Below are positions 21,262 through 61,088 of a stretch of DNA of 64,000 nucleotides, one piece after another. The translations under genes and the position numbers were made by a program. Source of the stretch: an uncultured Alphaproteobacteria bacterium (lineage in GTDB: Bacteria; Pseudomonadota; Alphaproteobacteria; Acetobacterales; Acetobacteraceae); NCBI GenBank assembly GCA_963826975.1, contig CAWGZJ010000005.1, forward strand, positions 302,959-366,958, given 5' to 3'. Below the pieces are notes generated by a model. The model was given only the letters and a program-made list of their open reading frames with translations, had not been told where the DNA came from and ran no database searches. The stretch's first letter is position 1. The number at the start of each line of letters is the position of its first letter.

Positions 21262-21340
21262 GCTTAACTACTCCCCCTCCCCTTGAGGGAGGGGGTTGGG
21301 GGGAGGGGTCGGCGCACAATCGGGGGAGGGGTCGGCGCAC
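21262..21340. repeat. Palindromic repeat family B (CTCCCCTTGAGGGAGGGGGTTGGGGGGAGGGGTC), copy 2
   Basis: Other copies at 505-536+1875-1992 (split by IS481), 57676-57785 and 60956-61078. Confidence 0.8.
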
Positions 21341-29966: not shown

Positions 29967-30416
29967 CTACGCCACTGGCCCCAGCCGCTTCCGCAGGAAA
30001 TACCGCGACTGGCCGGGCGGATAATCCTCCAGCACGCCGAATCTCTCATAGCCCAGCTTCTCGTAAAAACCGCTCGCCTGAAACGTGTCCAACCACACGG
30101 AATGGCAATCCTTCCCGCGCGCGCAGTCCTCGGCGGCGGTCATCAGCGCGCGACCGATGCCGCGGCCACGCAGATCGTCGCTGACCCACAGAGCCTGGAC
30201 GAACAACCAGCCCCAAAACAACGCACCGCACAATCCCGCCACGAGTTCCCCCATATCGTCACGCAGCAGCAACGCAAAGCGTTCGGTATCCAGCGGCACG
30301 GTGCGCGCGTTGAACGCATCGATCGCCGCGCCCAGCGCCCGGCGCGTCTCGACCGAGGGGTCCGGATCGAACGCCATATGCAGTCCGCTCGGCAAGCCGG
30401 TTGGGTCGCGCGCCAT
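29967..30416 (-). CDS. GNAT family N-acetyltransferase
   Basis: Motif A region RGRGIGRALM. Confidence 0.7.
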   Translation of the reverse strand: MARDPTGLPSGLHMAFDPDPSVETRRALGAAIDAFNARTVPLDTERFALLLRDDMGELVAGLCGALFWGWLFVQALWVSDDLRGRGIGRALMTAAEDCARGKDCHSVWLDTFQASGFYEKLGYERFGVLEDYPPGQSRYFLRKRLGPVA

Positions 30417-30478
30417 GGGTCCGTCCTGATCGACCATTAGTCATCGTGATGTTATGCCACGCCGGCCTGCGGCGACGA

Positions 30479-31321
30479 ATGCCGCGATGGAGCCGGATGA
30501 TGTGTGGATACTGCATGTGCCCGCGCGTATCGCAAGGTGCGTCGCAACACGTATCGCAACGCGTGTCGCAACACGTATCGCGACGCGGCTTCTGCCGCGC
30601 CGCGGTGGGCACCGCCGCAAGCCTGTCGATCACCCCCGGCCACGCCGCCGATCGCGATGCGCCGGTGGAACCGCGGATCCGCCTGGCCAATACACCGGCG
30701 GACAAACGGGTCATCGCGCTGACCTTCGATTGCTGCCCCGGTGCGTTCGACGCGCGGATCGCAACCGTTCTGATCGCGCAGCGGATCCCCGCAACGATCT
30801 TCGTCACCTGGCTATGGATGCGCCGCAATCCAGACGCGCTCGCGCTGCTGTCGGCGCACGCGGACTTGTTCTCGATCCAAAACCACGGCGAGTTGCACAT
30901 TCCCCCGGTACTGGGCGACCGCACGATATTCGGCATCCGCGTCGCGGGCGACCTGCCCACGATCCGGCGCGAGATCGATCGCGGCGCGCAGGCGATCCGC
31001 TCGGCCACCGGCTCCGCGCCGCGCTGGTATCGCGCCGCCACCGGCTTCTACACACCCAGCGTGATCCCGGAAATCGAGGCCATGGGTTGCGCCATCGGCG
31101 GCTACTCGCTCAGCGCCGACCAGGGCGCGTCGCTACCCGCGGCACGGGTCGCCGCGCGCATGGCGAACGCCAACGGCGGCGACGTGATCGTTGCGCACCT
31201 AAACCAGCCGTCGCGACCCAGCGGTCAAGGCGTGGTCGAAGGCCTGCGCGCGCTACAAAACCAGGGCGTAACGTTCGCGCGGCTTGACCAGGTCGCGACG
31301 ACACCGCCGACTTTCGGCTGA
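30479..31321 (+). CDS. Polysaccharide deacetylase family protein (start uncertain)
   Basis: NodB-homology motifs (TFDCCP, HGELH); upstream alternative starts overlap the GNAT gene. Confidence 0.65.
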   Translation: MPRWSRMMCGYCMCPRVSQGASQHVSQRVSQHVSRRGFCRAAVGTAASLSITPGHAADRDAPVEPRIRLANTPADKRVIALTFDCCPGAFDARIATVLIAQRIPATIFVTWLWMRRNPDALALLSAHADLFSIQNHGELHIPPVLGDRTIFGIRVAGDLPTIRREIDRGAQAIRSATGSAPRWYRAATGFYTPSVIPEIEAMGCAIGGYSLSADQGASLPAARVAARMANANGGDVIVAHLNQPSRPSGQGVVEGLRALQNQGVTFARLDQVATTPPTFG

Positions 31322-31424
31322 GCGCGGCGGCAAGGACCGCGCTGTACGCACCGGCCTCGTAACGGTCACCGCGCCGAACACAGACAAAAGGCCGCGCCGT
31401 TGCCGACGCGGCCCCTGTCCACCG

Positions 31425-32558
31425 TCACGCCGCCTCGCGCGGGCCGAACCGCACAAGCTGCGTCAGCAGCGCATCGAGACCCTGCCCCTCGCCGGTGTGC
31501 AGATCGATCCGACCGACCTTCTCCACCAACCGCTCGAGGCTCTCCAGCTCCTTGAGCCGCAGGAGAAGCGGGTTCTCCTCCATCAACTTGGCGGTGTTCA
31601 GCAGCGACCGCGTCGCCGCGGTCTCCTCCTGCCGGCGGATCAGGTTGGCCTTCGCCGTCCGTTCCGCCTCCACCACCTTGTTCACCAGCTCACGGATTTC
31701 CCCAGGCAGGATCACGTCCTTCACGCCGAGCTCCGTCACCTCGATGCCCGTCTCGCCGAGGCGCTCGCGCACGTAGGCACGCAGCTCCGCGTCGAGCGCG
31801 CTCTTGGCCGACAGCACCTCGTCCAGCGTCCGCGCGGCCACCGCCTCACGGATCGCGAACTGCACCAACCGGTACAGCCACGCATCGACATCCGCGACCG
31901 TGCTCACCGCACGCTCGGGATCGGCGATCCGCCGGAACGCGGTCAAGGTCACCCGCAGCGCGATGCGATCCTTGGTCAGCATCTCCTGCGCGGTGATCTC
32001 CAGCGCCTGCGGCCGCAGGTCTACACGCTTCACCTCGACCTTGCGGTTGACCGTCCAGAAGGCGTGCCGCCCCGGTGCGAGCCGTTCCACCAGCCTGCCC
32101 TCGATGAACAACAGGCCGGCTTCGTGGTTCTCCACCACCGTCTCGGACACGTAAGGAACGCGCGCGCGATCGAGCAACGTCAGGTGCCGCGCGTCCAGCT
32201 TCGGCCGCGCGGCCACGTCGATGCGCTCGACCGTCACCGCGGTCGCGACCTTCCAGAACACCCGCACCTGCCACGGACCCAGCAGATGCGCCGGACGACC
32301 GTCCAGGCTGACGACGGCGACCTCGTTCGCCACCGTCTCCACCGCCTCGAACAGCGCCGCGGCCAGCTCCGGCCGTTCCGCCTTCATCACGGCGTAGCGG
32401 TCCGCCGGGAATTCCGCATGCACCACCTGCAAAGTCTCGACCGTCAGCTCGCGCTTCAGGTCGAGCAGCCGGTGCCGGCCCGGGCCGAGCACGCGTTCAT
32501 ACCCGCCGTTGCGCATCAGCAACGCACGCTCGCCGTCCTTCACCGTCACGCGCAGCAT
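31425..32558 (-). CDS. SPFH / band-7 (slipin) family protein
   Basis: SPFH domain followed by a long coiled-coil C-terminus. Confidence 0.8.
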   Translation of the reverse strand: MLRVTVKDGERALLMRNGGYERVLGPGRHRLLDLKRELTVETLQVVHAEFPADRYAVMKAERPELAAALFEAVETVANEVAVVSLDGRPAHLLGPWQVRVFWKVATAVTVERIDVAARPKLDARHLTLLDRARVPYVSETVVENHEAGLLFIEGRLVERLAPGRHAFWTVNRKVEVKRVDLRPQALEITAQEMLTKDRIALRVTLTAFRRIADPERAVSTVADVDAWLYRLVQFAIREAVAARTLDEVLSAKSALDAELRAYVRERLGETGIEVTELGVKDVILPGEIRELVNKVVEAERTAKANLIRRQEETAATRSLLNTAKLMEENPLLLRLKELESLERLVEKVGRIDLHTGEGQGLDALLTQLVRFGPREAA

Positions 32559-32905
32559 CAGCCGCTGCCTGGTCACGACACATCTCCCATTGTTGGCCGC
32601 ACGGCGGCGCCGCGCGGCGAGGCTGCAAGGCGGAAAGACGGGTTCCGGGCACGCAACTTCCCACAAGACCGGCGGGCCGAGGCTTCAGCCCGTGCGCGGT
32701 CAGGCGCACGCCGTCCGCGACCATGCCGAGGCACGATGCGGCAAGCATGAACCGTCAACCGCGCGCGAGCGGTATCCGCCGCGGCGCAGAGCCGATCTCA
32801 AGGTGTCAGGTTCGAACGAAAGGCCTTTCGGCCAGGCGACCGGACCGCGACTGAAGCGCGCGCCCGGTTCCCTGCAGAGGAATTCAGCGTTACAGGCTGA
32901 ACCGG

Positions 32906-32982
32906 AGCGTTGGAGCGGGATTCGAACCCGCGACACGATGTTTATCAGACATCTGCTCTACCCATCTGAGCTATCCTTTCCG
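32906..32982 (-). tRNA. tRNA-like sequence with Ile(GAT)-type anticodon loop CTGATAA, good D- and T-arms, but the acceptor stem does not pair as read
   Basis: Minus-strand GGATAGCTCAGATGGGTAGAGCAGATGTCTGATAAACATCGTGTCGCGGGTTCGAATCCCGCTCCAACGC; D-arm GCTC/GAGC and T-arm GCGGG-TTCGAAT-CCCGC are canonical. Confidence 0.4.
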
Positions 32983-33058
32983 AGCAATCGACCGGACTCG
33001 AACCGATATTCCCGGGACAATCCCGGTGCTCTGCCCTTGAGCTACGACCACACCCTTC
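32983..33058 (-). tRNA. Second tandem tRNA-like sequence (canonical D-arm and GGTTCGAGTCC T-arm, atypical anticodon arm, GU-rich acceptor)
   Basis: Minus-strand GTGGTCGTAGCTCAAGGGCAGAGCACCGGGATTGTCCCGGGAATATCGGTTCGAGTCCGGTCGATTGCT. Confidence 0.3.
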
Positions 33059-33278
33059 GAACAGCGGAACACGAAAGCGCACAGCGCCTCGCGCCAGCCG
33101 GGATCTCACGAGCCCGGACACGGGGCTGAACGACGGGAGCGGCCGTATGGCGGAGATGATTTCACAATGCAAGAGAAAAAACGCGGGGCAAGAGAAAAAA
33201 CGCGGGGCAAGAGAAAAAATGCGGGACGACGCAATCGACAAAAAACGACCCTCGCACAAGGCAACGTTGTCCGCCGCA

Positions 33279-33605
33279 CTACCCGCCGGAACCAGCCTCG
33301 ATCGCCTGGATCACCTCGAACCCCTCGAACTCGGGATGCCCGAGATACAGCGGCCAATTCTGCCCGGCATCCCGATGCGCGGCGCGAAACGCCTCCGACC
33401 GTGTCCAGGCCTCGAACTCCGCTTTGCCGCGCCACAGCGTGTGCGAGGCATACAGCACATGATCGTCGCGTTCCGGCCCACGCAGCAGGTGAAACGCAAC
33501 AAATCCCTCCACCTCCCGCAGATGCGTATCACGCAAGGCCCAAACCTGCTCGAACGCCGCCTCCGAGCCGCGGACGACCTTGAAACAATTCATGGCAATG
33601 AACAT
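33279..33605 (-). CDS. Antibiotic biosynthesis monooxygenase (ABM/Dabb) family protein
   Basis: MFIAMNCFKVVRGSEAAFEQVW... ferredoxin-like ABM fold signature. Confidence 0.55.
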   Translation of the reverse strand: MFIAMNCFKVVRGSEAAFEQVWALRDTHLREVEGFVAFHLLRGPERDDHVLYASHTLWRGKAEFEAWTRSEAFRAAHRDAGQNWPLYLGHPEFEGFEVIQAIEAGSGG

Positions 33606-33755
33606 CGGGCACCTCCGATGACAGTACACCTCTCCCGCGCTTGCGGGAGAGGTCGCGGAGTACTTACGACGCGGGTGAGGGTAGTCCACGCGAAACCACA
33701 GCACCCCTCACCGTCCCGGTTCAACCCCGCGACGGCGAGGGGCGTCAGCAAAACC

Positions 33756-35415
33756 TCAGCTATGCCAACGGAACTCCTGCGGCTTCCGCGCCGAGCCCAG
33801 ACTGAGCTTGACGTTGACCAGCGCCGGCCCCCTGAAGTTCATCGCCTCATCCAGCGCACCGCGCAGGTCCTTCGGGTCCTCGACATAGAACCCCTTGCCG
33901 CCGAACGCCTCCATCATCAGGTCGTAACGAGCGCCCCAGATCAGCGAGTTCGGCCGCATATTCAGCATCGGGTTGTGCGGAATTTCCTCCATCCCCGGCC
34001 CGATGCCGCCGTTGTTGAACACGACGATCTTCGCCGGCATTCCGTAACGACACAGCGTCTCCATCTCCATGCCGGAGAAGCCGATCGCCGAGTCCCCCGA
34101 GACGTGCACCACCGGCCGATCAGGATGCACGACGCACGCGGCGATGACGATACCCAGGCCGACGCCCATCGTGCCATAGCTGCCGGCGTCCAACCGCGAG
34201 CGCGGCAGGAAATTCGGCAACTGAGTGCGGCCGATATCCATCGTGCTGGCGCCCTCGCTGCAAACGATCGCGTTCTTCGGCGTCCAGGCCGCGACATCGC
34301 GCAACAGCCGATAGTAGCCGCCCGGCGCCGAGTTCATCGGCGATCTGCGGCGCGATCAGCGCAGCGTTTTCAGCCGACTTCTTGGTGATCGCCGCGCGCC
34401 ACGGCGTCTCCTTCGGATAGAACCACTGACGGCTTTCCAGCGCCTTGTTCAACTGCCCCACGATCGCCTTGCCGTCACCGCACAGCGCGACCTCGGCCGG
34501 CTTGTTCTGGTGCATCGCTTCCGGTTCGATATCGAGCTGAATGACCCGCACATCCTTGTTGTAGCGCGGCGGCAGGCCGAAATGCATGATCCAGTTGAAG
34601 CGCGCGCCCATCAGGAACACCACATCGGCCTGTTGCAACGCCAGGCTGCGTGACGCGCCGACCGATAGCGGGTGGTCGTCGGGCATCACGCCCTTGCCCA
34701 TGGGCGAGGCCAGGAACGGCACTTGTGTGCGCTCGATGAACGCGCGCACCTCGTCCTCGGCACGCGAGAAGGCCATGCCTTTGCCGATGATCACCAGCGG
34801 CCGCTCGGCCGATTGCAGCACGTCCAGCGCCTGCTCGACGTATTGCGGCATCGTCTGGATGCGCGGCGGCTCCGGGCATTTCGCGACCTGCATCGCCTTG
34901 TCCACGTCACAGCCGCCGGTGATGATGTCGTCCGCGATGTCAAGATAGGTGGCGCCCGGCCGGCCGTAGATCGATTGCCTGACCGCCATCTCGACGTAGA
35001 ACGGGATGCGGTGCACGTGCTCGATGCCGTGCGCCCATTTGCACAGCGGCGTCGCGGCCAGAACCTGGCGCTCTTCCTGGAAGGCGCCCATGCCGTTGCG
35101 GTAGGTTTCCGATGCGCCGCCGATCAACAGCATCGGCCAGCAATTCTGCTGCGCATTCGCCAGGCCAGCCAGACCGTGGATGACGCCCGGACCGGTCACG
35201 ACGATGCACGAGCCCGGGCGCCCCGTCAGGTAGCCGACGGCACCGGCGGCGTACGACGCGGTCTGCTCGTTGCGCATCCCGATATAGGGGAGGCCAACCT
35301 TCTGCGCTGCCTCGGCGAGCGGACCCACCGGGAACCCCACCACGCCGAACATGAATTGCACGCCTTGTTCCTTGAGGCTTTTCGCCAGCAAGTCAGCGCC
35401 TTTGATCTCAGCCAT
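33756..35415 (-). pseudogene. oxc: Oxalyl-CoA decarboxylase (ThDP-dependent), split by a single frameshift near 34330-34390
   Basis: N-terminal 431-aa ORF (34120..35415) and C-terminal 193-aa ORF (33756..34337) together match full-length Oxc; the junction is ...ENAALIAPQIADE / MNSAPGGYYRLL. Confidence 0.75.
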
Positions 35416-35848
35416 GTTTCCTCCTGTCAGCGGGCGGTTACGATCGGGCCCGTTACGAAAAACTCCGAACGACGATCACATTACGCATATTTGGCTCCGC
35501 GGCAACTCGAGGCGCCCCCCGGGGAGAGTCCAAGGTCGAAAAGCCGCGCGGCCCGGCCCGCATCCAGGCGCGGAACCCGTAAGAACAGGCTGTCGTTCGA
35601 GCGCCGGCCGAGCGTGCGGGCCGGCGTGGCGTATCCGATTGTGACACCGATCCGACGCACCATGTCGCGAAGAATGCGCAGCATGGTCGCGCGCGCGACC
35701 ATTCGCAGACCACGGTCATCGTGGGATTAGTAGTAATACCCGGTGTCCGAATGATCGACCGTCGGCGATACACACACCGTCATGCCGGCGAAAGCCGATA
35801 TCCACGCCTTTTTCGGTTCTTCGCTGATTTGTGTGAGTAGCAACGAGT

Positions 35849-36064
35849 TCAGACTGGCAGCCTGAGATCAAGCTTTCCGGCGAGTGGATAGACCATGGGC
35901 TTGAGGTTCCTGGTTGAGCGATAGCCGCGCGCCTTTGCCTTGGCGGCCTGAACGAGGCTGTTGATGCCTTCGATCCGACCGTTGGCGATCTTGCTATCGA
36001 ACCAACGCAGGATGCCGTCCCAGTGGTGCTTGACGGTGTGTGCTGCATCGCCAGGTTCCAGCAA
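35849..36064 (-). pseudogene. ISL3 family transposase C-terminal fragment
   Basis: HWDGILRWFDSKIANGRIEGINSLVQAAKAKARGYRSTRN matches the conserved ISL3 transposase C-terminus; no upstream remainder. Confidence 0.6.
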
Positions 36065-36197
36065 TTCCCAATAGGCCTCGGCATCCCGTAGTGTCTCAGC
36101 ATCAAACTAAAGACTGCTGATACCCGGAAGTTTTCCTATTTGCCTTCCGGTAAGCGCGCCGCGGTCTCGACGCAGTAGGCGATCTGGGCGCCCGAGG

Positions 36198-36866
36198 TCA
36201 CTCCTTCCGCACGATCCATTTCGGTCCCGCGACGCGGAGCGGCGCGGCGATCGACAAGGAAAACTCGTCCGCAGCCTTGACGACGCCCGGCCAACTCGGG
36301 CCGTAATCGTCGCCCATCAGACTGCCGCCGGGCGCAAGGATTTTCCAGTAGGCCCGCGCATCTGCCAGGACGGCTTCATAGTCGTGCGCGGCATCAATGT
36401 GGATCAGGTTGGGCCGGATGCCCGCGTGCCAAAGCAACTCCGCAGCGCCCGTCGAGGCTTGTGCCAGCGGCACCACTCTGTCCTGCATGCGCGAGCGCAC
36501 CACGTTGGACAGGAACTGCTCGTACAGCATGGGGCGCCCGAACTGGCGCGGGATCAAATCGAAGAACCGCCTGCCGGGCATGCAGTGTTCAGGGCTGCCG
36601 AGGAACGTATCAACTGCGATCACGGCGCCGTCGATCTCGCGCTTGCGCATCAGGTCCGCCAGGAACAGCGTCGATGCGCCCTTCCAGACGCCGACATCGA
36701 CGATGATGCCAGGCCGCGTCTCGGCAACGATTTCCTCGAACACGGGCGAGGTCGAGTTCCATCCTTGCAGGTCCAGCGCGAATGTCGGCACGAAGCCGGC
36801 GTAGATATCGGCGCCATGCAGCTTTTGCATGACATCGGCGGCGCGGGTAGTTTGTTCGGGATCCAT
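36198..36866 (-). CDS. Class I SAM-dependent methyltransferase (O-methyltransferase-like)
   Basis: GIIVDVGVWKGASTLFLA SAM-binding motif. Confidence 0.7.
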   Translation of the reverse strand: MDPEQTTRAADVMQKLHGADIYAGFVPTFALDLQGWNSTSPVFEEIVAETRPGIIVDVGVWKGASTLFLADLMRKREIDGAVIAVDTFLGSPEHCMPGRRFFDLIPRQFGRPMLYEQFLSNVVRSRMQDRVVPLAQASTGAAELLWHAGIRPNLIHIDAAHDYEAVLADARAYWKILAPGGSLMGDDYGPSWPGVVKAADEFSLSIAAPLRVAGPKWIVRKE

Positions 36867-36976
36867 GTAGATCTCTCCAATGGTCAATTTAGCCGGGATC
36901 GGCGGGGCTTCCACACACCGCCGGCCCCAATCTATATGCGGAGATTGATAATGAGCAGAGATGGCGACGGCGCGCT

Positions 36977-37167
36977 AGCCCGCATTTCTCACACTGTTGC
37001 GGGATGATGGCCCAGGGCAGTGTCGGGCATTGTCGCGCCAGCAGGTTTTCGCGCCGCCGCCAATACCGGGTGTATTCGCCCAATGGGTACATGAGCAACG
37101 TGCGAAAACCTGTTGGCGCGGCAAGGACCAAGCCAGCACCCGCGAGAGTGTGAGAAATGCGCGCTAG
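36977..37167. repeat. MITE family E copy 1 (~190 bp; TIRs GCCCGCATTTCTCACACTGTTGCGGG / CCCGCGAGAGTGTGAGAAATGCG)
   Basis: Second copy in opposite orientation at 62080-62256. Confidence 0.8.
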
Positions 37168-37472
37168 TGGCCTGAAGTCGATCACAACGTTGGGTATAGC
37201 CTCTTCAGTTTGATGCGAGCGTTGGCGGTGGTGAACTGCCAATCGGCTTTGGCGTGGTTCTTGTTGCGATCGTCCTCCCAGGCGGCGACTTCCTCGATCA
37301 GGGTCTGCTTGTCGGCGATGCGCCGGTGTTGCCTGACGACGCTTTCAGTCCCTCGACACCGGCTTAGATGGCTGGCTATGTATGGGGCGTTAGGGCATTC
37401 TCGCGCGTTCGGTGGGCACACGGGGCAAGTTCAGTCTCGCCTGATCTGCAATGCACAAGGGGGGAACAAGCC

Positions 37473-37712
37473 ATGAGCTTCACCGACATCTCGCCCGACG
37501 CCCTGCGCATCGAGGCCGTAGCCAAGCGGCTGTGCCATCTGATGACCGTGAACAATCACGGGCGCCCCTGCCGCGTCGAGATGGACGGCTCGGGCCGGTT
37601 CGACTGCGCCTGCGGCCAGTGGCGTCGCGCCATGGATTGGGCCGCCACCATTGTCCGCGCGCACGATGCTGTGGACCCGCTGCGCATGTTCTGCAAGCCG
37701 CCGTCTGAATAA
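37473..37712 (+). CDS. Small hypothetical protein (MSFTDISPDALRIEAVAKRLCHLMTVNNHGRPCRVEMDGSGRFDCACGQWRRAMDW...)
   Basis: ORF with Cys/His-rich segment in the accessory patch; weak. Confidence 0.25.
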   Translation: MSFTDISPDALRIEAVAKRLCHLMTVNNHGRPCRVEMDGSGRFDCACGQWRRAMDWAATIVRAHDAVDPLRMFCKPPSE

Positions 37713-38011
37713 CGATCACGCCGGCCGAGGTCGCGCAGACATACGCGGCGCCTTCGGCTGTGCGACTGCCTTGCGAATCCATAACGATGTCGGAATGAGA
37801 CTTGACGCCAGGCGATGCTTGCGAGTCAACGCGACCATGACGTGCCTCGGCGGTTCCCTCGCGGCCGCATTGCTGGTAGATTGCCCCAGAACTTTATGAG
37901 GTCTCTGGCGCCAGAAGGCGGCCAAACACGCGGCAAGGGGAGTTACACGGCCGGTCGAACGTCGATCATCATCGGCAATGCAGGGAATGTGGGTTTCGAG
38001 TTCGAAGAGGT

Positions 38012-38944
38012 TTGCAGGTGATGCCGGATGACCCATTGTCACAAACGGGACAGGCGCTCTGGGCGGAAGTGTTGGTGCGATTCCCGGACCCAGCCGCGGC
38101 ATGCCCGCGTGCGGCCACGATGCTGCAACGGTTCGATGAAGCGGGAGACGTCCTTCGGCAGGCGATGGAGCTGTTGCCAACTAATCGGAGTGTGATCTTT
38201 GCGCACGCGGAACTTGCGACGCGCCGCAACGACTGGGCTGGTGCCTTGGCGTGCCGGAACTCGCGGCATGGCTTTGCCCAGGCGCTCACCGTTCGCACCG
38301 GGTGGCCGCTTGATGTGTCTGGGCCGGAATGGTTCTTGAGAATGACTTCAGCACGGGAGAGTCTGATGATCGGTCCGATTGCCTATGATGTAGGAATGAA
38401 CAACGGGGATGACAGTGACTACTATCTCAAGAAGGGTTACAACGTCGTCGGAATAGATGCCAATCCGATTGTGTGCGAACAGGCGGCACGTCGTTTCGAT
38501 GTTGGTATCAAGGCGGGTAGGATCACCATCCTGAACCTTGGTGTAGGGTCGCAGCCGGGGCGCATGACCTTCTACGTCCACAAAGGACATTCGGTCCTCA
38601 GCACGTTTTGTCCGGAGCAGATCTTGTCAGGCGATAAGAACGATCTCAATCCAGAGGTATGGCAGCCAATCGACGTAGAGGTTCGACGTCTGTCGGATAT
38701 CGTGCGTTTCTTTGGTACCGGAGAATATATCAAGATTGATGTAGAGGGATTTGATGTCGTCGCTCTGAAGGATCTGAACGTGAATAAAATCTACCCGAAG
38801 TATATATCGGCTGAGGCGCACCAGGTAGATACATTCTGCCATCTGGTTGCCATGGGCTACACGGAATTCAAGTTCGTTCAGGGTGCGACCGGTACCACAC
38901 CCTGTTCAGCGACCACGAAATCGGCTTGCTCGGAGGTGGGGTGA
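38012..38944 (+). CDS. FkbM family methyltransferase with N-terminal helical (TPR-like) extension
   Basis: AYDVGMNNGDDSDYYLKKGYNVVGIDANP...IKIDVEGFDVVAL; the gene body is markedly lower GC than its surroundings. Confidence 0.7.
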   Translation: MQVMPDDPLSQTGQALWAEVLVRFPDPAAACPRAATMLQRFDEAGDVLRQAMELLPTNRSVIFAHAELATRRNDWAGALACRNSRHGFAQALTVRTGWPLDVSGPEWFLRMTSARESLMIGPIAYDVGMNNGDDSDYYLKKGYNVVGIDANPIVCEQAARRFDVGIKAGRITILNLGVGSQPGRMTFYVHKGHSVLSTFCPEQILSGDKNDLNPEVWQPIDVEVRRLSDIVRFFGTGEYIKIDVEGFDVVALKDLNVNKIYPKYISAEAHQVDTFCHLVAMGYTEFKFVQGATGTTPCSATTKSACSEVG

Positions 38945-39448
38945 CGAGGCACGCATTCCCCGGGCACTCCGCGGGGCCGTTCGGGGAGGACATTCCTGGT
39001 CCTTGGCTAGACAAGAAGACGATCCTTGCGTTATGGCAGCAGCGTGGAGGGGGATGGTGTGACCTCCACGCGCGCATGTCGCCGGTCAGTCCAGAATGAT
39101 GTTGCCATGGGCTCCTGGCCGGATATCCGCATAATTCGATACGGAATGCGGCTAGTCACGCCACGTCCTTGATTTTGGCGCCAATCCCCAAATCGATGTC
39201 TCCGCACTGTCGGAGACGTATCGTGACCGCGAAACAAACCGCCACAAAGAATGGTTCTTTGCTTCGACAAAGGCAAGCCGTGAATACCGGCCGGAATCTG
39301 TCCCCTGCGCAGGCGGGGGGTTCGTCGTCATCACGCAACGACGCGTGAACGCCGTCGCCAAATCGCAACAAAGGCGGGGCGAGAAGCCGCGGCCCCCCGC
39401 CCCGCCCCGAACTGCGGCGCAAAGCCGAACGCTGCCGCACGGGTCGCT

Positions 39449-39757
39449 TCAGAGCACCGAATACTGCATCCGTTCGCGCCGCGTCAGCTTCGGCAACCCC
39501 TGCTCCAGCACCAACGACTTGAAGTGCGCTGTCTGCTGGTGCGCCGCAAACGCCGCCTCATCCTCGAACAGCTCATAGAACAGGAAATGCCCGGGATTCG
39601 CCGCACCACGATGCACCAGAAACAGTTTCACCCTCGGTTCATTGCGCGCCGCTTCGCCCAGCCGCGCGAGGATCCCCGCCACCGCGTCCTCCTCGCCCGC
39701 CTTCGCTTCCCAGATCGCCGAGATCGCGACCCCGCTCGTGTATTGCTGTGACTGCAT
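39449..39757 (-). CDS. ABM-domain putative monooxygenase (YgiN-like)
   Basis: ~100-aa ABM fold sequence. Confidence 0.65.
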   Translation of the reverse strand: MQSQQYTSGVAISAIWEAKAGEEDAVAGILARLGEAARNEPRVKLFLVHRGAANPGHFLFYELFEDEAAFAAHQQTAHFKSLVLEQGLPKLTRRERMQYSVL

Positions 39758-39892
39758 GGTGTCCTCCTGTCGTGCATGACCACGCCACGGACCCTAGTCG
39801 CTATGCGGCGGCTTATGTTTCGGGCAACGCCGAACCAAGCGGTATCGCAGCACGCTTGGCGTCAGGCTGTTCCATCTGGCATACAGCGTCGC

Positions 39893-40114
39893 ATGACCAG
39901 CAGCATCGTCAGACGTTCAACGATCACTTGCCCGCGGTGCGGCACATCGAAGGCCGAGACGATGCCGACCGACGCCTGCCAGTTCTTTTATGATTGCAGC
40001 GGTTGCGGCACGCTGCTGCGCCCGCTTCCTGGCGATTGTTGCGTATTCTGCTCATTCGGCGACATGCCGTGCCCGCCGATCCAGTGCGGCGGCGGCAAGG
40101 GCAGCGCTGCCTGA
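39893..40114 (+). CDS. Small zinc-ribbon protein (CPRCGTSKAE...CSGCGTLLRPLPGDCCVFCSFGDMPCPP)
   Basis: Two CxxC pairs plus a conserved GDCCVFCSFG motif. Confidence 0.45.
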   Translation: MTSSIVRRSTITCPRCGTSKAETMPTDACQFFYDCSGCGTLLRPLPGDCCVFCSFGDMPCPPIQCGGGKGSAA

Positions 40115-40146
40115 TCCACCATTCGCCCGCGGAAATACGTGTCCTC

Positions 40147-40256
40147 GATAACTATTAGCAATAAAGAATCACCACAGAGGCACAGAGACACGGAGAAGAA
40201 CATCAAGTCGATCACTTGGCTTTTCTGCTCCGTGTCTCCGTGTCTCCGTGGTGATT
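40147..40256. repeat. MITE family C, copy 5 (ends in a T-run)
   Basis: GATAACTATTAGCAATAAAGAATCACCACAGAGGCACAGAGACACGGAG...CTCCGTGTCTCCGTGTCTCCGTGGTGATTTTCTG. Confidence 0.75.
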
Positions 40257-40334
40257 TTCTGCTTACGGACATGCGGCCCGGTACCGATTCCGGCAAGCAC
40301 TGCCTGACACCACCCGCGCGCCCGCAGGCGCCCG

Positions 40335-41192
40335 CTAATCCGCCCGGATCAACCCGCGATGGCTCGGCGCGTCGATGAACGCCAGCACCTCGGCGATCAG
40401 CTCATCCTCGCCATACGCCGCCCGCGTCTCCTCCAGCCGCTGCTTGAACACGCCCTCATGGCGGAACAGCATGCGAAACGCCGTATGCAGCCGGCCAACC
40501 TGCGCCTTGTCGAAGCCACGCCGCTTCAACCCGATCACGTTCAACCCGGCCAGCCGCGCGCGGTTGCCGATCACGCTGCCGAACGGGATCACGTCGGCCT
40601 CCACCCCGGAAACCCCGCCGATCATCGCCGCCCGCCCGATGCGCACGAACTGATGGATCGCCGCCGCGCCGCCGATCACCGCGTGGTCGGCGATGCTGAC
40701 ATGCCCGCCCATCACCGCGTTGTTCGCGATGATCACGTGATCGCCCACCTGGCAGTCGTGCGCGACATGCGCCACCGCCATGATCAGGCAATCCGCGCCG
40801 ACGCGGGTGACGCCGCGTCCCGTCACCGTGCCGCGATGGATCGTGCAGTGCTCGCGGATCTGCGTGCGCGCGCCGATCTCGCAACGAGTCGGCTCGCCCT
40901 GGTATTTCAGGTCCTGCGGCTCCAGCCCGACGGTGCAGAATGGGAACAGCACCACGTCGGGTCCGATCACCGTGTGGCCATCCACCACCACATGCGAAAC
41001 CAGGCGCGTCCCATCGTCGATCACCGCGTTGGCCCCGACGCTGCACCACGGCCCAATGCTGACGCCGCTCCCAAGCTCCGCCCCGCGCGCCACGATCGCG
41101 CTCGGATGGATCGAGACCGGCTTCGCCTTCGGGGCAAGCGCTCGTGTTCCAAGCACCGTTGCGGCAAGCACTGGGGTCATTGGGGGTGGCAC
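40335..41192 (-). CDS. lpxA: Acyl-ACP--UDP-N-acetylglucosamine O-acyltransferase
   Basis: Hexapeptide-repeat left-handed beta-helix and LpxA C-terminal domain. Confidence 0.85.
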   Translation of the reverse strand: MPPPMTPVLAATVLGTRALAPKAKPVSIHPSAIVARGAELGSGVSIGPWCSVGANAVIDDGTRLVSHVVVDGHTVIGPDVVLFPFCTVGLEPQDLKYQGEPTRCEIGARTQIREHCTIHRGTVTGRGVTRVGADCLIMAVAHVAHDCQVGDHVIIANNAVMGGHVSIADHAVIGGAAAIHQFVRIGRAAMIGGVSGVEADVIPFGSVIGNRARLAGLNVIGLKRRGFDKAQVGRLHTAFRMLFRHEGVFKQRLEETRAAYGEDELIAEVLAFIDAPSHRGLIRAD

Positions 41193-41384
41193 TCGCCTTG
41201 GTTGTTGCGCTGCGGCACCCTAGGTGGAGGCCCCGGGGTGGCCAACACAATCATTGTTGCTTCGTGTTTCGCCGATCGGCCTGTAACTGTTTGTTTCATA
41301 TAGAATTCCGGCGGAATTGCGGCCGCCCCCCAACCGATCCGGCCCAACCGATCCGGCATGATCCGTGGGAGCGCGCGCGGTGGT

Positions 41385-41891
41385 TCATCCGATCGATGGT
41401 GCGCGATCCATGATCATCGCCGTATAGGTGGCCTCGGCGACCGAGATGCCGTCGACCCGTGCCACCGCCACGAACTTCCAGACATTGCCGCGGTTGCGCT
41501 GCTTGGTGCAGTGGATGCGAAGCTGGTCGCCCGGCACCACCGGGCGGCGGAACTTGGCACCCTCCACCGACATGAAATAAACCACCCGGCCGGCGGCGTC
41601 GGGGCCCAGCGTCTCAACCACCAGGATCGCCGCGGTCTGCGCCATCGCCTCGATGATCAGCACCCCCGGCATCACCGGGTGGTTGGGAAAGTGGCCCTGG
41701 AAGAACAACTCGTTGACCGACACGTTCTTGATGCCGATCGCCGACTGGTTGGTCACCAGGTCCACCACGCGGTCGATCATCAGGAACGGATAGCGATGCG
41801 GAATCGCCTGCAGGATGCGGGCAATGTCCACCACTTCCACCACCGAGCCCGCCGGCGGTGCCAAGGTCGTTGCAATTGCCGATGCGTCCAT
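41385..41891 (-). CDS. fabZ: 3-hydroxyacyl-ACP dehydratase FabZ
   Basis: HRYPFLMIDRV...FFQGHFP...PGVLIIEAMAQ. Confidence 0.9.
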   Translation of the reverse strand: MDASAIATTLAPPAGSVVEVVDIARILQAIPHRYPFLMIDRVVDLVTNQSAIGIKNVSVNELFFQGHFPNHPVMPGVLIIEAMAQTAAILVVETLGPDAAGRVVYFMSVEGAKFRRPVVPGDQLRIHCTKQRNRGNVWKFVAVARVDGISVAEATYTAMIMDRAPSIG

Positions 41892-41896
41892 CGCGG

Positions 41897-43054
41897 TCAG
41901 TCCGTGTCCGTCCTCTTGCTCGCGGCATCCAAGCCGCCAGCATTCCCATCGCCACGTACCTCTTCGGCGCTTACCCCGTCGGCGCGTATCCGGTCGGCGC
42001 GAGACTTATCGCCGGCCGCCGCCTTGCCACCTCCTTTCGCCAGGCGGCGCAAAATTGCCACCTCGCGAAAGAACGCCCAACGGGACTGCGCCGGGCTGCC
42101 GACCACTTCCGTCCCGGCCGCCACGTCCGCCATCACCCCGGCCTGCGCGCCGATCCGCGCCGTGCGGCCGATCCTCAGATGCCCGGTCAGCCCCGCCTGG
42201 GGGCCGACCATCACGTGGTCTTCCAGGATCGTGGAGCCAGACACACCCGCCTGTGAAACGATCACACAGCCCAGACCCAGGCGCGCGTTGTGCCCGATCT
42301 GCACCAGGTTGTCGAGCCGCGAGCCGGCGCCGATCACCGTGTCCTGCAAGGAGCCGCGGTCGATCGTGGAGTTGGCGCCGACCTCGACGTCGTCCTCCAG
42401 GATGACCCGGCAGAGTTGCGGCACGCTGTGGAACCCCTCGCCGGTGATGGCGAACCCGAAGCCCTCCTGGCCAATGCGCGCACCGGGATAGACATAGACC
42501 CGGGCACCCAGCAGCGCGTGGCTGAGGCTGGCGTGCGACCCGATCCGGCAATCCGGGCCAAGCACCACGCCCGGGCCGATCACCGCCAGCCCGCCGATGC
42601 GGCAGCGCGGGCCGATCTCGGCACGCTCGCCGATCACCGCCAGCGGACCGATCTCGGCCGAGGGATCGATGATCGCGTCCGCGCCGATCACCGCCGTCGG
42701 GTGGATGCCGGCGCGAGCCGGCGGCACCGGGTGAAACAGCGCGGCGACCTTGGCCCAGGCAGCGTACGGCTCCGCGGTGACGATCGCCACACCACCGGCG
42801 GGCACGCGCGACGCCATGTCGGGGTGCACGATCACCGCCCCGGCGCGTGTGGCATCAAGCGCCAGCGCGTATTTGCGGTTGTCGAGGAAGCTCACCTGAT
42901 CGGCGGCGGCGGTCCGCAGCGGCGCCACGCCGGCCAGCATCAGCCGCCGTGGCTGCGCCTCGGCTTCCGCGGCATCCGCCACCGCGGCCAGCGTGAACGG
43001 ACCAGCGCGCTGAAAAAATCGTGGATCGCCGACAATCTCCGGCCAGTCCGTCAC
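41897..43054 (-). CDS. lpxD: UDP-3-O-(3-hydroxyacyl)glucosamine N-acyltransferase, with a Gly/Ala/Asp-rich C-terminal extension
   Basis: LpxD N-terminal domain plus hexapeptide repeats. Confidence 0.85.
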   Translation of the reverse strand: MTDWPEIVGDPRFFQRAGPFTLAAVADAAEAEAQPRRLMLAGVAPLRTAAADQVSFLDNRKYALALDATRAGAVIVHPDMASRVPAGGVAIVTAEPYAAWAKVAALFHPVPPARAGIHPTAVIGADAIIDPSAEIGPLAVIGERAEIGPRCRIGGLAVIGPGVVLGPDCRIGSHASLSHALLGARVYVYPGARIGQEGFGFAITGEGFHSVPQLCRVILEDDVEVGANSTIDRGSLQDTVIGAGSRLDNLVQIGHNARLGLGCVIVSQAGVSGSTILEDHVMVGPQAGLTGHLRIGRTARIGAQAGVMADVAAGTEVVGSPAQSRWAFFREVAILRRLAKGGGKAAAGDKSRADRIRADGVSAEEVRGDGNAGGLDAASKRTDTD

Positions 43055-47154: not shown

Positions 47155-48045
47155 GTGGTTGCCGTGACGCCGGGGGGAAACCGCGCCGATCCGGGGACGC
47201 GGCCGGCGCTGGGCATTCTCGCCGGCGGCGGACGGTTGCCTGGCAGGGTCGCCGCCGCCGCCGCCGCTGCGGGCCGCCCGGTGTTCATGGTCGGCCTCGA
47301 CGGCTTCGCCGACCCTCCCGTGCTGGCGCCCTGGCCGCACGAGGTGATCCGAATCGGCGCCGCCGGACGGATCCTGGCGGCGTTGCGCGCCAATCGGTGC
47401 GCCGACCTCGTGCTGATCGGCACGGTGCGGCGGCCATCCCTGCTTGCCCTCCGCCCGGATGCCGAAGGCGCCCGCATCCTGGCGCGAATTGGCCGCGCCG
47501 CGTTCGCCGGGGACGACGGGCTGCTCGCCGCGGTCATCAAGGTGCTCGGCGAGGAAGGCTTCCGCGTCGTCGGCGCGCACGAAGTTATCAACGAGGCGCT
47601 CGCCCCCTCCGGCGTGTTGGGCGCCGTGACGCCGGACGCCCAGGCGATGGCCGACATCGATCGCGGGATCGCCGTGGCACGCGCGCTGGGCGCGGTGGAT
47701 GTCGGTCAGGGCTGCGTGGTGCAGCAGGGCCTGGTCCTGGCGGTCGAGGCGGCCGAGGGCACCGACGCCATGCTCGCGCGCTGTGCCGCGTTGGCGCGAT
47801 CGGGGCCGGGCGGCGTGCTGGTCAAGCTGGTCAAGCCGGCGCAGGACCGCCGCGCCGACCTGCCGACCATCGGCCCGGGATCAGTTGGCGCCGCCGCCGC
47901 CGCCGGATTGCGCGGGATCGCCTTCGCCGCCGGGGCCACATTGCTGGCCGATCGCGCGGCGGCGATCGACGCGGCGGACAGGGCAGGCCTGTTTCTGCTA
48001 GGCCTGGATCCGGCGACCATATCCGAAGGAGGAGAACACACATGA
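47155..48045 (+). CDS. lpxI: UDP-2,3-diacylglucosamine pyrophosphatase LpxI (DUF1009)
   Basis: [11 protein letters not shown]...VFMVGL...[27 protein letters not shown]...[19 protein letters not shown] conserved LpxI blocks. Confidence 0.75.
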
Positions 48046-48428
48046 GCAGCTTTCTGCACACCATGATTCGCGTCGGCGATCTGCAGCGCAGCGTCGATTT
48101 CTACACCAAGGCGTTCGGCATGAAGGAGCTGCGCCGGCGCGACGTGCCGGACGGCAAATACACCCTGGCGTTCGTCGGCTACGGCGACGAGGACAGCAAC
48201 ACCGCGATCGAGCTGACCTACAACTACGGCGTGGAAAAATACGAGATGGGCAGCGCGTTCGGCCATCTGGCGGTTGGCGTACCGGACGTGGCAGCAGCGT
48301 GCCAGATTGCCGCGAGTGCCGGCGGCACGATCACCCGCCCGGCCGGCCCGGTAAAGTTCGGCACCACCATCATCGCCTTCGTGAAGGACCCGGACGGCTA
48401 CCTGATAGAACTGGTCCAGCGCCACTGA
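48042..48428 (+). CDS. gloA: Lactoylglutathione lyase (glyoxalase I)
   Basis: GGAGGAG RBS 7 nt upstream; [16 protein letters not shown]...ELTYNYG...GHLA glyoxalase I signature. Confidence 0.85.
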
Positions 48429-48850
48429 CATCCCCAACGTTCACCTCTCCCGCTCTTCGCGGGAGGTCGAGGCGCGAAGCGACGAGGGTGAGGGCGCGGA
48501 GACCAATATGTCCCACCGCGGCCGCGCCGGTTCGTCAAGGACCCGGACGGCTACCTGATCGAGCTGGTCCAGCGCCACTGACATCCCCAATGTTCACCTC
48601 TCCCGCTCTTCGCGGGAGAGGTCGAGGCGCGAAGCGACGAGGGCGAGGGCGCGGAGACCAATATGTCCCACCGCGGCCGCGCCGGTTCGTCAAGGACCCG
48701 GACGGCTACCTGATCGAACTGGTCCAGCGCCACTGACATCCCCAATGTTCACCTCTCCCGCTCTTCGCGGGAGAGGTCGAGGCGCGAAGCGACGAGGGTG
48801 AGGGCGCGGAGACCAATATGTCCCACCGCGGCCGCGCCGGCCGCCAGGTC
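48421..48850. repeat. Tandem ~153-bp duplication (2.8 units) made of the last 57 bp of gloA plus a family-A repeat element
   Basis: Units start at 48421, 48582 and 48735 and each contains ...GTCAAGGACCCGGACGGCTACCTGATCGAGCTGGTCCAGCGCCACTGA. Confidence 0.85.
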
Positions 48851-49111: not shown

Positions 49112-49678
49112 ATGGACGTGGTCGAACTGTCCCGCCTGCAATTCGGCCTAACGGCGATGTACCACTTCCTCTTCGTCCCCCTGGCCCTAGGCCTAGCCAT
49201 CCTGCTCGCCATCATGGAGAGCATCTACGTCACCACCGGCCGCACCATCTGGCGCGACATCACCAAATTCTGGGGCCTGCTGTTCGGCATCAACTTCGCC
49301 ATGGGCGTCGCCACCGGCCTGACCATGGAATTCGAGTTCGGCACCAACTGGGCCTACTACGCGCACTACGTGGGCGACATCTTCGGCGCCCCCCTGGCGA
49401 TCGAGGGCCTGATGGCCTTCTTCCTGGAAGCCAGCTTCATCGGCCTGTCCTTCTTCGGCTGGAACCGGATGACCCGCGTGCAGCACCTGATCGCCACCTG
49501 CCTGATGGCGATCGGCACCAACCTCTCGGCCCTGTGGATCCTGATCGCCAATGGCTGGATGCAGAACCCGGTCGGCGCGCGGTTCAACATCGCCACCATG
49601 CGCATGGAGGTCACCGACTTCTTCGCCGTCCTGGAGATCAGTTTCCCAGGCTTACAAGTCGAACGGGTAAGGAGGTAG
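49112..49678 (+). pseudogene. cydA: Cytochrome bd ubiquinol oxidase subunit I (CydA), N-terminal ~185 aa only; truncated at ~49640 where sequence composition changes
   Basis: [27 protein letters not shown]...GWNRMT...[10 protein letters not shown] matches the CydA N-terminus; full CydA is ~450-520 aa and no cydB follows. Confidence 0.7.
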
Positions 49679-49845
49679 ATGGTGATCCAATTCGATGCTG
49701 CGCCCGCGGTTTCGATTAGCTACCCGCGCCTGAAGGCCCTCAATTCGTCAGAGATCGACCGGGCGCGAGCTTCGGGTTATGCTGCCGATGACGTGGACCC
49801 AAAGGCGCCTGTCCGACGTGCGGGCTGAATAACTACGACGCCCCA

Positions 49846-50136
49846 ATGCCCGAAGAGGATCTTCGAGATTGGCGCGCACGAATGTATGTCGTTTGGTTCT
49901 GCTATATTTACGAAAATTTCCGAGTCATACATAAACCCCTATTTGCTCTCGAGGAACTTGCATTAGAGTTCAAAGCCCTGTACCTCCTTGATCCGAGATT
50001 TGGCAGTTTATACGCTGGCGCGGGCGGCTTGGAACCTGCGTCGCTCGCTGTGCGAGAAAAACAACTGGAGCTCCTAAAGCCGCTCTATATCAAGGCAATT
50101 CAGTTGCTTGAGACATGGAATACCTCTCATGGCTAG
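49846..50136 (+). CDS. Hypothetical 96-aa protein in a low-GC (~50%) patch
   Basis: ORF with atypical composition; its position immediately upstream of the Rhs-tip fragment is compatible with an orphan immunity-type gene. Confidence 0.3.
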   Translation: MPEEDLRDWRARMYVVWFCYIYENFRVIHKPLFALEELALEFKALYLLDPRFGSLYAGAGGLEPASLAVREKQLELLKPLYIKAIQLLETWNTSHG

Positions 50137-50308
50137 AAAGATGCTTGCTCTGTTAACCCGCATTTGTCACTCAGCGGAGTGTTGGACGTTTCGGCGGCGA
50201 TGAATTGAGCGTTGGACGCGTCGTGTCGTTGGCCGGCGGTTCTGTTCGAAAAAGAGGCCAAACCTGACCGGTTCCAGCATTTTAAAGTCCGAGACAGCGT
50301 TCTGGCGT

Positions 50309-50869
50309 TTGGCTCGGGGGGAAGGAGGTGAACACTTGGGCCGCGCCGCCGGTATCAAGCTATATGCATATGTCGGAAATACCCCGCTGAACCGCATAGA
50401 CCCAGTCGGTCGTTGCGACAATCTATCGGGGTGTGCCGCCGGTTCGAGCGACCAGCTCAATATGGCCGATGAGCCGTCGATCTGGCCTCGCCACGCCGAC
50501 ATCACCGACCACAACCGGCTCAACAACGGCGCACGACGGTGTTCTCCTCTGGAGGTCAACTGGTTGACGGCTTCGAGCCGCAAGCGCAGGTCTCGGTCGG
50601 GCCAATGCTTGCCTTCCTCGAACGCCAGTGCGTCGATGCTGAATTACAGCGCGCACCACGCTGACCAGGACGCCAAGGTTTGGCTGGGCCAACCCTGGGC
50701 CGCGGCGGCACTCCTGATTGAGCTGCCGCAGGCGTTGGTGGTTGCTCGCAGCCAGCACTATATTGCCCCCATGGACACCGCCCCACCCCCCCCCGCGCCA
50801 ACTCAGCCACAATCCGCGTCGACACCCAGGCGGAGACCCGGCGCCGGATCGCCCGGGAGGCCGAAATGA
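50309..50869 (+). CDS. Orphan Rhs/YD-repeat C-terminal tip fragment (LYAYVGNTPLNRIDPVG core-end motif followed by a ~100-aa variable toxin-like domain); 3' part of the ORF is probably read-through
   Basis: The YxYxGNxPLNxxDPxG motif marks the end of Rhs core domains; no upstream Rhs core is present. Confidence 0.5.
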   Translation: MARGEGGEHLGRAAGIKLYAYVGNTPLNRIDPVGRCDNLSGCAAGSSDQLNMADEPSIWPRHADITDHNRLNNGARRCSPLEVNWLTASSRKRRSRSGQCLPSSNASASMLNYSAHHADQDAKVWLGQPWAAAALLIELPQALVVARSQHYIAPMDTAPPPPAPTQPQSASTPRRRPGAGSPGRPK

Positions 50870-53384: not shown

Positions 53385-53389
53385 TTCGG

Positions 53390-53505
53390 GGCCGACTGAT
53401 TTGGGGCCGACTGAACCGGGCCCGCCTGAACCGGGCCAGACTGAACCAAGGCCGACTGAACCAAGGCCGACTGAACCAAGGCCGACTGAACCACGGACGC
53501 GGCCG
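53390..53505. repeat. 16-bp microsatellite (GGCCGACTGAACCAAG-like, about 7 units) between the adaptor and RND genes
   Basis: Read directly. Confidence 0.85.
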
Positions 53506-53536
53506 GCTCGCGGACCGCACCGCCAGGGAGCATCAA

Positions 53537-57616: not shown

Positions 57617-57675
57617 TGCGGGTGCCGTATGCGACCCCGAAGGTGGTGGAGTGATGCGGGTGCCATATGCGACCA

Positions 57676-57785
57676 CTTCTCCCCCTCCCCTTGAGGGAGG
57701 GGGTTGGGGGGAGGGGTCAATCCCCCACCGACGTTGCGCGCTCAACCCCTCCCCCCACCCCCCTCCCTCAAGGGGAGGGGGAGTA
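57676..57785. repeat. Palindromic repeat family B, copy 3 (gatC-gatA spacer), preceded by a 44-bp direct duplication at 57595-57680
   Basis: Read directly. Confidence 0.8.
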
Positions 57786-57804
57786 GCGCACCCAGAACCA
57801 CCCC

Positions 57805-61078: not shown

Positions 61079-61088
61079 ATTGTCATCA

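Follow-up and report, generated by a model that had tools for sequence, protein, structure and literature searches.

In a 64,000-nt window of the genome of an uncultured soil member of the Acetobacteraceae (all positions given below are those of this window), the spacer between oxc, the oxalyl-CoA decarboxylase gene, and an ABM-domain monooxygenase-like gene located close to lpxA contains 3788 bp of DNA that are absent from the closest separate genome. This islet, which harbours two methyltransferase genes of the Methyltransf_24 and FkbM families, is a real but ordinary strain-level accessory patch of insertion sequence (IS) and miniature inverted-repeat transposable element (MITE) debris. The explanation that we favour, and that we consider likely, is that several events, rather than one clean insertion, left their residue in the oxc-ABM spacer as a small accessory islet at the level of the strain or species. 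An earlier note on this DNA, a reading made without tools, had described positions 35450-40330 as horizontally acquired. As far as acquired DNA is concerned, this reading is correct in the central 3.8 kb; it is wrong for the outer 1 kb, for a proposed displacement of lpxI and lpxB and for a proposed fusion of a TPR-like domain to the FkbM protein.

Species-representative genomes were searched with LpxA as a query, which gave 80 loci, nearly all from uncultured soil or peat Acetobacteraceae. The exact lpxA product of the window has no entry on record. In the closest separate genome, L001 (LpxA 99% identical and DNA about 93% identical to the window), the patch is absent: oxc and the ABM gene are adjacent, 432 bp apart, in the order lpxD-fabZ-lpxA-MITE-C-GDCCVxC-ABM-oxc-hmuQ, with oxc intact. 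The window is colinear with L001 on either side of the islet. Alignment of the two sequences with blastn and MAFFT delimits the extra DNA to 35538-39325, with junctions at 35537/35538 and 39325/39326. Where the window has 3788 bp, L001 has 184 unrelated bp of oxc/ABM spacer, which show no homology to either islet end. The whole islet is colinear in L081, a strain about 97% identical to the window, and part of it is found in L082; these two near-identical sequences were used with the window in a three-way alignment of the FkbM region. Since gene order is not kept among relatives and base composition is not uniform, the central idea of accessory DNA stands. From left to right, the islet contains the following features.

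35538..35814: left-end spacer, 277 bp from the junction to the ISL3 end, with no conserved open reading frame (ORF), Pfam match or repeat.
35815..36046, minus strand: ISL3-family IS fragment, with the last ~65 aa of the transposase, the stop codon and ~35 bp ending in GGTTCTTCG.
36047..36087, minus strand: 41-nt scrap encoding LRDAEAYWELLEPGD.
36198..36866, minus strand: intact gene for a 222-aa class I S-adenosylmethionine (SAM) methyltransferase (Methyltransf_24; TylF/CmcI/NovP-like).
36976..37167: MITE-E copy 1, an IS630-type element of ~190 bp with terminal inverted repeats (TIRs) of ~28 nt (TAGCCCGCATTTCTCACACT...).
37182..37400, minus strand: C-terminal fragment (~72 aa) of an IS630-family transposase.
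37473..37712, plus strand: 79-aa ORF with several Cys residues.
38012..38365, plus strand: non-conserved stretch misread as the N-terminus of the FkbM protein.
38366..39099, plus strand: FkbM-family methyltransferase gene, frame-broken; the intact form would be 243 aa.

Base composition distinguishes one of these genes from its surroundings. The FkbM body has a GC content of 0.540 as compared to a mean of 0.661 for the window (z = -3.2), which places it in the lowest 0.2% of segments of the same size. The 3.8-kb patch (0.601) and the full 35450-40330 span (0.606) each lie under every other segment of their size. At third codon positions (GC3), the core genes lpxA, fabZ, lpxD, bamA, lpxI and oxc range from 0.82 to 0.88 and FkbM is the lowest at 0.63, whereas Methyltransf_24 (0.81), the small ORF (0.86), the ABM gene (0.81) and the GDCCVxC gene (0.77) are close to native values. 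FkbM alone is therefore clearly foreign in composition, because the other patch genes fall near the core range. The low GC of the FkbM body described in the earlier note was confirmed. A second low-GC stretch, at about 49550-50500 (~0.54), equals the FkbM region as the lowest of the window, and its ORFs have no Pfam match.

The FkbM domain is carried by an ORF of 310 aa (38012-38944) that scores above both curated cut-offs of the family (TIGR01444, 58.3 bits for a cut-off of 37.7; PF05050, 43.3 bits for a cut-off of 22.7). The family assignment is thus sound, but the reading frame is broken in the window. Its homologues (n=106, barring the truncated gene call of L082 itself) are about 222-362 aa long, the closest being 243 aa, and align only to residues ~115-290 of the ORF. 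They start at the residue matching MIGPIAYD (ATG at 38366) and end in ...HSAGPFGEDIPGPW...GGGWCD.HAR, an ending that sits in another frame in the window. The three-way alignment located the lesions: an extra G at 38892, also present in L081, and an extra C at 38895, found in the window only. The frame is lost after ...FVQGAT at 38892/38895, leaving the C-terminal 57 codons in another frame. Deletion of these two bases in silico produces an uninterrupted 243-aa protein that aligns end to end with the homologues. The gene is broken in all three assemblies, each time differently, the lesion being +2 for the window, +1 for L081 and -41 nt for L082, and we think it probable that it is truly inactive.

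The TPR-like N-terminus attributed to this protein turned out to be an artefact of ORF extension. The stretch 38012-38365 is fused to FkbM only via an extra A at 38258, a base missing from both L081 and L082; its TPR signal is below threshold (E=0.005), and the homologues start downstream of it, at ATG 38366. A homologue search with these 114 aa retrieved only their own copy in L082. A conserved TPR-methyltransferase fusion and a conserved upstream TPR gene were both dropped, as the search found no homologues beyond that copy. The last ~16 codons of the stretch (GWPLDVSGPEWFLRMT) resemble the C-terminus (GYPLEIVGPKWILRRT) of a Methyltransf_24-like gene on another contig, L083, where this gene ends 20 nt upstream of, and on the same strand as, an FkbM homologue with 77% identity. 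Judged from this contig, genes of both methyltransferase types thus occur as neighbours elsewhere. In the window, by contrast, Methyltransf_24 and FkbM are divergent, with the MITE, the IS630 stump and the small ORF between them.

As a member of the FkbM family, the window protein matches in length and at both ends a 243-aa subfamily from small clusters with glycosyltransferase or sulfate-activation genes. It differs in its broken frame, and it has neither a TPR fusion nor a solved or characterised close relative. The closest homologues are located on contigs of 55-58% GC. Others are found near GT61 or GT92 glycosyltransferase genes, near CysN/APS-kinase genes, or alone. A search of PDB sequences gave no match, and a metagenome scan with the repaired protein gave only three relatives, at 32-34% identity, with no added context. 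In L087 and L097, FkbM homologues of 56-59% identity lie near a CysN/APS kinase gene, accompanied by CysD in L087. These gene neighbourhoods give hints that the subfamily may work in pathways of methylated and sulfated glycans.

The second methyltransferase gene, predicted as a SAM-dependent O-methyltransferase from its letters alone, is intact. Its ORF covers 36198-36914 and the coding sequence starts at ATG 36866, which a GGAGAG ribosome-binding site precedes by 7 nt. The protein matches the entire PF13578 profile (Methyltransf_24; positions 1-105 of 105) with 61.7 bits for a cut-off of 26.3, and also gives local TylF and RMNT_CmcI matches above cut-off. At 222 aa it has the same length as its homologues, including its counterpart in L081 (P0108), from which it differs by 1 aa. 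It is 79% identical to P0109, whose gene cluster (L084-L086) is composed of genes for a beta-helix protein, the methyltransferase, a 237-aa protein and a GT90 glycosyltransferase; some members of the family are even fused to GT90. Elsewhere in Acetobacteraceae, homologues are single genes in housekeeping settings, as in the prfA-MT-prmC arrangement of L100, and L102 has one among metabolic genes. Among solved structures, the nearest are O-methyltransferases, of which NovP and MycF act on sugars (E about 1e-5 to 2e-5).

The protein thus shares with TylF/NovP/MycF/CmcI-type enzymes a full-length Methyltransf_24 domain and the two local matches. However, it is only distantly similar to any characterised enzyme (E about 1e-5), its gene has no antibiotic or polyketide genes nearby, and its close homologues stand beside GT90 genes or are solitary. 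The gene is most likely still functional and encodes an orphan SAM-dependent O-methyltransferase, whose substrate is probably a sugar of a cell-envelope glycan. The functional prediction suggested in the earlier note assigns both methyltransferases to families, whose members have mixed gene neighbourhoods.

Downstream of the stop codon of Methyltransf_24, the DNA remains homologous to the L084 cluster for 110 bp; this homology ends abruptly at 36088, 41 nt away from the start of ISL3 homology at 36046. The peptide encoded by this 41-nt scrap, LRDAEAYWELLEPGD, resembles over 14 residues only a Methyltransf_24-family motif of L083, LRDAETYWQLLEPDG. From so short a match, the scrap may conceivably be what is left of a second copy of the methyltransferase gene that the IS destroyed.

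The IS debris belongs to two families. The ISL3 transposase tail, already recognised in the earlier note, lies in an ORF at 35849-36064 with a match to PF01610 (DDE_Tnp_ISL3) at E=3.4e-14 that covers only positions 189-237 of the 240 of the profile. Homology begins at residue 20-22 of the 85-aa query, which sets the limit of the fragment at 36046, and reaches 75% identity at the DNA level and 62% at the protein level with ISAtc2/ISTfe1. The GGTTCTTCG end at 35815 is a putative ISL3 TIR. A complete element has a ~400-aa transposase, two TIRs and a target duplication; here ~65 C-terminal codons are left. The IS630 stump at 37182-37400 had been overlooked. Its DNA is 76-79% identical to annotated IS630 transposases, and identity at the protein level is up to 74.5% for residues 33-79 and 46% for residues 8-78. 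The 79-aa ORF that contains the stump gave no Pfam or NCBIfam match, and corresponds to the C-terminal tail only of a DDE-domain transposase.

MITE-E copy 1 was correctly placed in the patch, and its second copy lies in inverted orientation at 62080-62257; the two are 85% identical over 190 bp. Copy 1 is flanked by TA/TA and copy 2 by TA/TT, two copies being few for a judgement on a TA target-site duplication. The element resembles the MITEs of the IS630/Tc1-mariner group in being non-coding, ~190 bp long, bounded by ~28-nt TIRs and present in at least two copies, with TA at both ends of copy 1 and the IS630 stump 14 bp away. It differs in that copy 2 has TA on one side only and that no parent IS was found. 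The stump beside it was considered as the source of MITE-E and rejected, because it is not oriented as a parent copy would be: the adjacent TIR of the MITE faces the wrong way.

Next to the IS630 stump, the small Cys-containing ORF of the earlier note was indeed found at 37473-37712. An exhaustive search of 1.84 billion representatives gave three short relatives (45-70% identity) that share with it the pattern G..C...G...C....W.R; the remaining matches are Cys-rich repeat proteins. In L081 and L082, too, gene calling recognises this ORF. It probably encodes a real small protein, which belongs to a very small family.

We then compared divergence inside and outside the islet. Between the window and L081, substitution divergence is 4.7% in oxc, 0.63% in the patch (35538-39325), 0.75% in 39326-39990 (the ABM gene and part of the GDCCVxC gene) and 3.2% from lpxA to lpxD. 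The tract of low divergence, at ~35440-40100 (about 4.6 kb), nearly coincides with the span first proposed as acquired. Because divergence is 0.6-0.75% in this tract and 3-5% on its flanks, the tract has a younger common ancestor than the flanking sequences. This suggests that strains recently exchanged the islet, with homologous recombination acting via the conserved flanks. A second such tract, at 31400-33450, shows mosaicism of this kind to be common here. More generally, divergence between the window and L081 over 29979-43045 is strongly mosaic, from 0.5% to 9% per block, which points to frequent homologous recombination in the population.

On these grounds, the history of the islet could be reconstructed as follows. 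A fragment of a methyltransferase cassette with the Methyltransf_24 and FkbM genes would have arrived, at least partly from a donor of lower GC content. An ISL3 element, an IS630 element and an IS630-type MITE would then have broken up and reshuffled this cassette; of the two transposase genes, only stumps are left. Finally, the islet would have moved recently between strains of the population along with the ABM and GDCCVxC genes next to it, by homologous recombination via the flanks. On this view, the islet has no function as a unit.

In its absence from a close relative, in the truncated transposases of two IS families, in its MITE, its single compositionally foreign gene and its pseudogene, the patch resembles the strain-specific islets or plasticity zones that build up as IS elements repeatedly insert and decay. 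It resembles them also in its position in a spacer between conserved genes and in its spread between strains by flanking homology. In contrast, it differs from a classical integrative genomic island in being only 3.8 kb long, with no integrase, no tRNA/att border and no flanking direct repeats at its junctions. A search of plasmid DNA with the whole patch gave matches only to the two IS stumps, so that the patch is not a known plasmid segment. Rfam searches of 33000-41500 and of the whole window detected no riboswitch or non-coding RNA in the patch; sub-threshold miRNA-like matches fell on the MITE-C hairpin only. Six-frame reading of the spacers 35538-35814, 37713-38011 and 39100-39448 revealed no convincing coding remnant and no internal repeat.

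Several observations weigh against the explanation of a gained and partly decayed islet. The alignment of the window with L001 revealed no target-site duplication, att site or repeat at either junction, and the route of entry is one that we infer. The adjacency of Methyltransf_24 and FkbM comes from a single 1-kb contig (L083) and involves a 55%-identical paralogue of the former. The case for a sugar substrate is weakened by the homologues that also occur as lone genes in the housekeeping contexts of L100 and L102. None of the outgroups shares the oxc-ABM adjacency, so that loss of the patch in L001 is possible. Finally, the window differs from L082 by 6 indels and 0 substitutions over 2.5 kb. 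Such a ratio is typical of technical error, and the frameshifts may be assembly errors, in which case the organism itself could have intact FkbM and oxc genes.

This last point calls for a closer look at the indels. Single-base insertions unique to the window were found at 34333, 37175, 38258, 38895 and 39157; each of them doubles a neighbouring base except that at 39157. In 12.9 kb of flanking sequence, 6 unique indels were counted in the window and 47 in L081. One of the insertions, an extra T at 34333, splits oxc into two frames on the minus strand (33756-34337 and 34120-35415), the N-terminal 431 aa of the protein matching NF006721 with 344 bits. Apart from this, its protein shares 95-97% identity with the product of the intact gene of L001, and gene calling in L081 gives one gene of 551 aa. 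The oxc gene had been described as decayed, a term that is too strong whether or not the frameshift is real; we judge a real frameshift and an assembly error about equally probable. Insertions unique to the window may also reflect assembly error in other places, and this would touch pseudogene calls elsewhere in the window.

If all lesions were assembly errors, the patch would be a working islet in which Methyltransf_24, the small ORF and FkbM are expressed and decorate a surface glycan. The absence of substitutions relative to L082, the insertions that are all unique to the window and mostly double a neighbouring base, the removal of just two bases that restores FkbM to full length and the error-prone assembly of L081 are all consistent with such a situation. 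However, FkbM is disrupted in three independent assemblies, two of which have the extra G at 38892 in common, and with only 6 unique indels in its flank the window does not have a high error rate. Furthermore, IS debris lies between the two methyltransferase genes, which are in divergent orientation and have no common promoter. We therefore regard a working islet as unlikely.

The patch could otherwise be ancestral to the group of the window and L001 and have been deleted in L001, the window retaining an older island in the course of decay. The lack of homology between the 184-bp spacer of L001 and the ends of the patch, the lack of a target duplication and the stumps to which the IS copies are already reduced, which imply some age, would fit this proposal, and outgroups devoid of the oxc-ABM adjacency cannot polarise the event. 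Nevertheless, the ~0.6% divergence from L081 within the patch, as opposed to 3-5% in its flanks, indicates a young shared history, and the GC3 of FkbM is still strongly foreign and has not been ameliorated. From the composition, the IS content and the low divergence within the patch, we infer a gain here rather than a loss in L001, which appears quite improbable to us.

A more ambitious proposal, to which we give little credence, would see in the spacer downstream of the lipid A genes a preferred site, in this soil population, for the landing and exchange of genes that tailor envelope glycans. Methyltransf_24, joined by FkbM if the frameshifts of the latter were assembly errors, would form a mobile two-methyltransferase capping cassette that was recently swept between strains by recombination. 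Such a cassette would alter the methylation of lipopolysaccharide or exopolysaccharide and thereby phage or host recognition.

The remaining part of the span first described as acquired, to the right of the islet, is ancestral, and conserved genes lie on either side. The flanking features are the following.

33756..35415, minus strand: oxc (oxalyl-CoA decarboxylase), left flank, outside the insertion.
39449..39757, minus strand: ABM-domain monooxygenase-like gene (PF03992), outside the insertion.
39893..40114, plus strand: GDCCVxC-domain zinc-ribbon protein (NF041374, 99 bits).
40108..40260: MITE-C copy 5, a hairpin-forming repeat.
40335..41192, minus strand: lpxA (NF003657, 354 bits), the right conserved anchor, followed by fabZ and lpxD.
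47155..48045, plus strand: lpxI, detected by tblastn with the LpxI of Acidisoma (L068), 62.5% identity over residues 2-276.

The ABM gene adjoins lpxA in L001 (96%), L002 (88%) and L003 (74%). The zinc-ribbon ORF (39776-40114), whose likely start is the Met at 39893, is 90% identical in L001; this GDCCVxC gene is ancestral to the group formed by the window, L001 and L081. MITE-C copy 5 is located at the same site in L001 and L081; other copies lie near 5978, 15577 and 29810, and a related hairpin at 15281-15453. Because all three are conserved next to lpxA in the patch-free L001, they predate the insertion. The extra DNA is thus limited to 35538-39325: the ABM gene, the zinc-ribbon gene and MITE-C copy 5 are real features, but none of them is part of the insertion.

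The earlier note had also placed the insertion where lpxI and lpxB normally follow lpxA. The order lpxD-fabZ-lpxA is kept in nearly all of the 80 relatives, and lpxI follows within ~1 kb of lpxA in 45 of the 73 with enough sequence, but not in L001-L004. Using the Acidisoma LpxI, identified by PF06230/PF17930, as a probe, we found the lpxI of the window upstream of bamA, divergent from it and on the opposite strand, and L001 has it in the equivalent place without any patch. The separation of lpxI from lpxA therefore goes back further than the patch and is not connected with it. As compared to the alphaproteobacterial lipid A cluster lpxD-fabZ-lpxA-lpxI(-lpxB), the window has bamA-skp-lpxD-fabZ-lpxA in the usual order and differs in that lpxI is divergent upstream of bamA and does not follow lpxA. 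No lpxB was found among the window ORFs scanned. In the region 47155-48840, lpxI is followed by a glyoxalase-domain coding region whose 3' end, with a palindrome resembling repetitive extragenic palindromic (REP) sequences, is present in three tandem copies with a 155-nt period (48378-48840).

That the whole of 35450-40330 is one horizontally acquired block that displaced lpxI and lpxB is thus extremely improbable: the GC of the full span, the usual position of lpxI in relatives and the extent of the low-divergence tract shared with L081 agree with it, but the synteny of L001 refutes the outer 1 kb, with the ABM gene (also beside lpxA in L002 and L003), the GDCCVxC gene and MITE-C at the same site, the GC3 of the two genes (0.77-0.81) is native-like, and lpxI is intact with an equivalent in L001 and does not follow lpxA in L002-L004.

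On the left side, the tRNA-like sequences nearest to the islet lie at 32912-33051, 2.5 kb off, and are common to L001. A tRNA-anchored island was considered and rejected, since these sequences are degenerate, distant by 2.5 kb and located inside the block colinear with L001. They form a tandem of two on the minus strand (Rfam tRNA, 51 and 43 bits), where both L001 and L081 can be aligned with the window. In one, the anticodon loop is Ile-like (GAU) and the acceptor stem is missing; in the other, which ARAGORN reports as tRNA-???, the anticodon loop is shortened. Left of oxc, a gene at 33279-33704 (minus strand) encodes an HmuQ-type heme-degrading protein (NF053649, 157 bits). Two ABM-fold genes thus occur within 6 kb, this one and that beside lpxA, with no relationship between them. 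Between hmuQ and the tRNA-like sequences, at ~33170-33230, a unit of ~19 nt (ttttttctcttgccccgcg) is present in three direct copies.

Other repeats occur throughout the window. A G/C-rich palindromic REP-like repeat (CTCCCCCTCCCCTTGAGGGAGGGGG...) is present in at least six copies, some of them in inverted pairs, at 1949-1995, 21268-21315, 57674-57804 and 60959-61098. Three tandem arrays, at 4356-4523, 11149-11328 and 53364-53507, with periods of 12, 15 and 15 nt, respectively, are in frame inside long ORFs and probably encode repetitive low-complexity protein segments.

Beyond annotation, the significance of the islet is slight. The comparison illustrates four pitfalls of a tool-free reading: the island was extended by ~1 kb too much, a spurious ORF extension was taken for a domain fusion, a single-base indel was taken for gene decay, and the insertion was tied to an older, unrelated synteny break between lpxA and lpxI. 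The analysis also flags likely indel errors in the assemblies. For work on these uncultured peat and soil Acetobacteraceae, it points to a recombining accessory site and to an orphan methyltransferase that could affect surface glycans.

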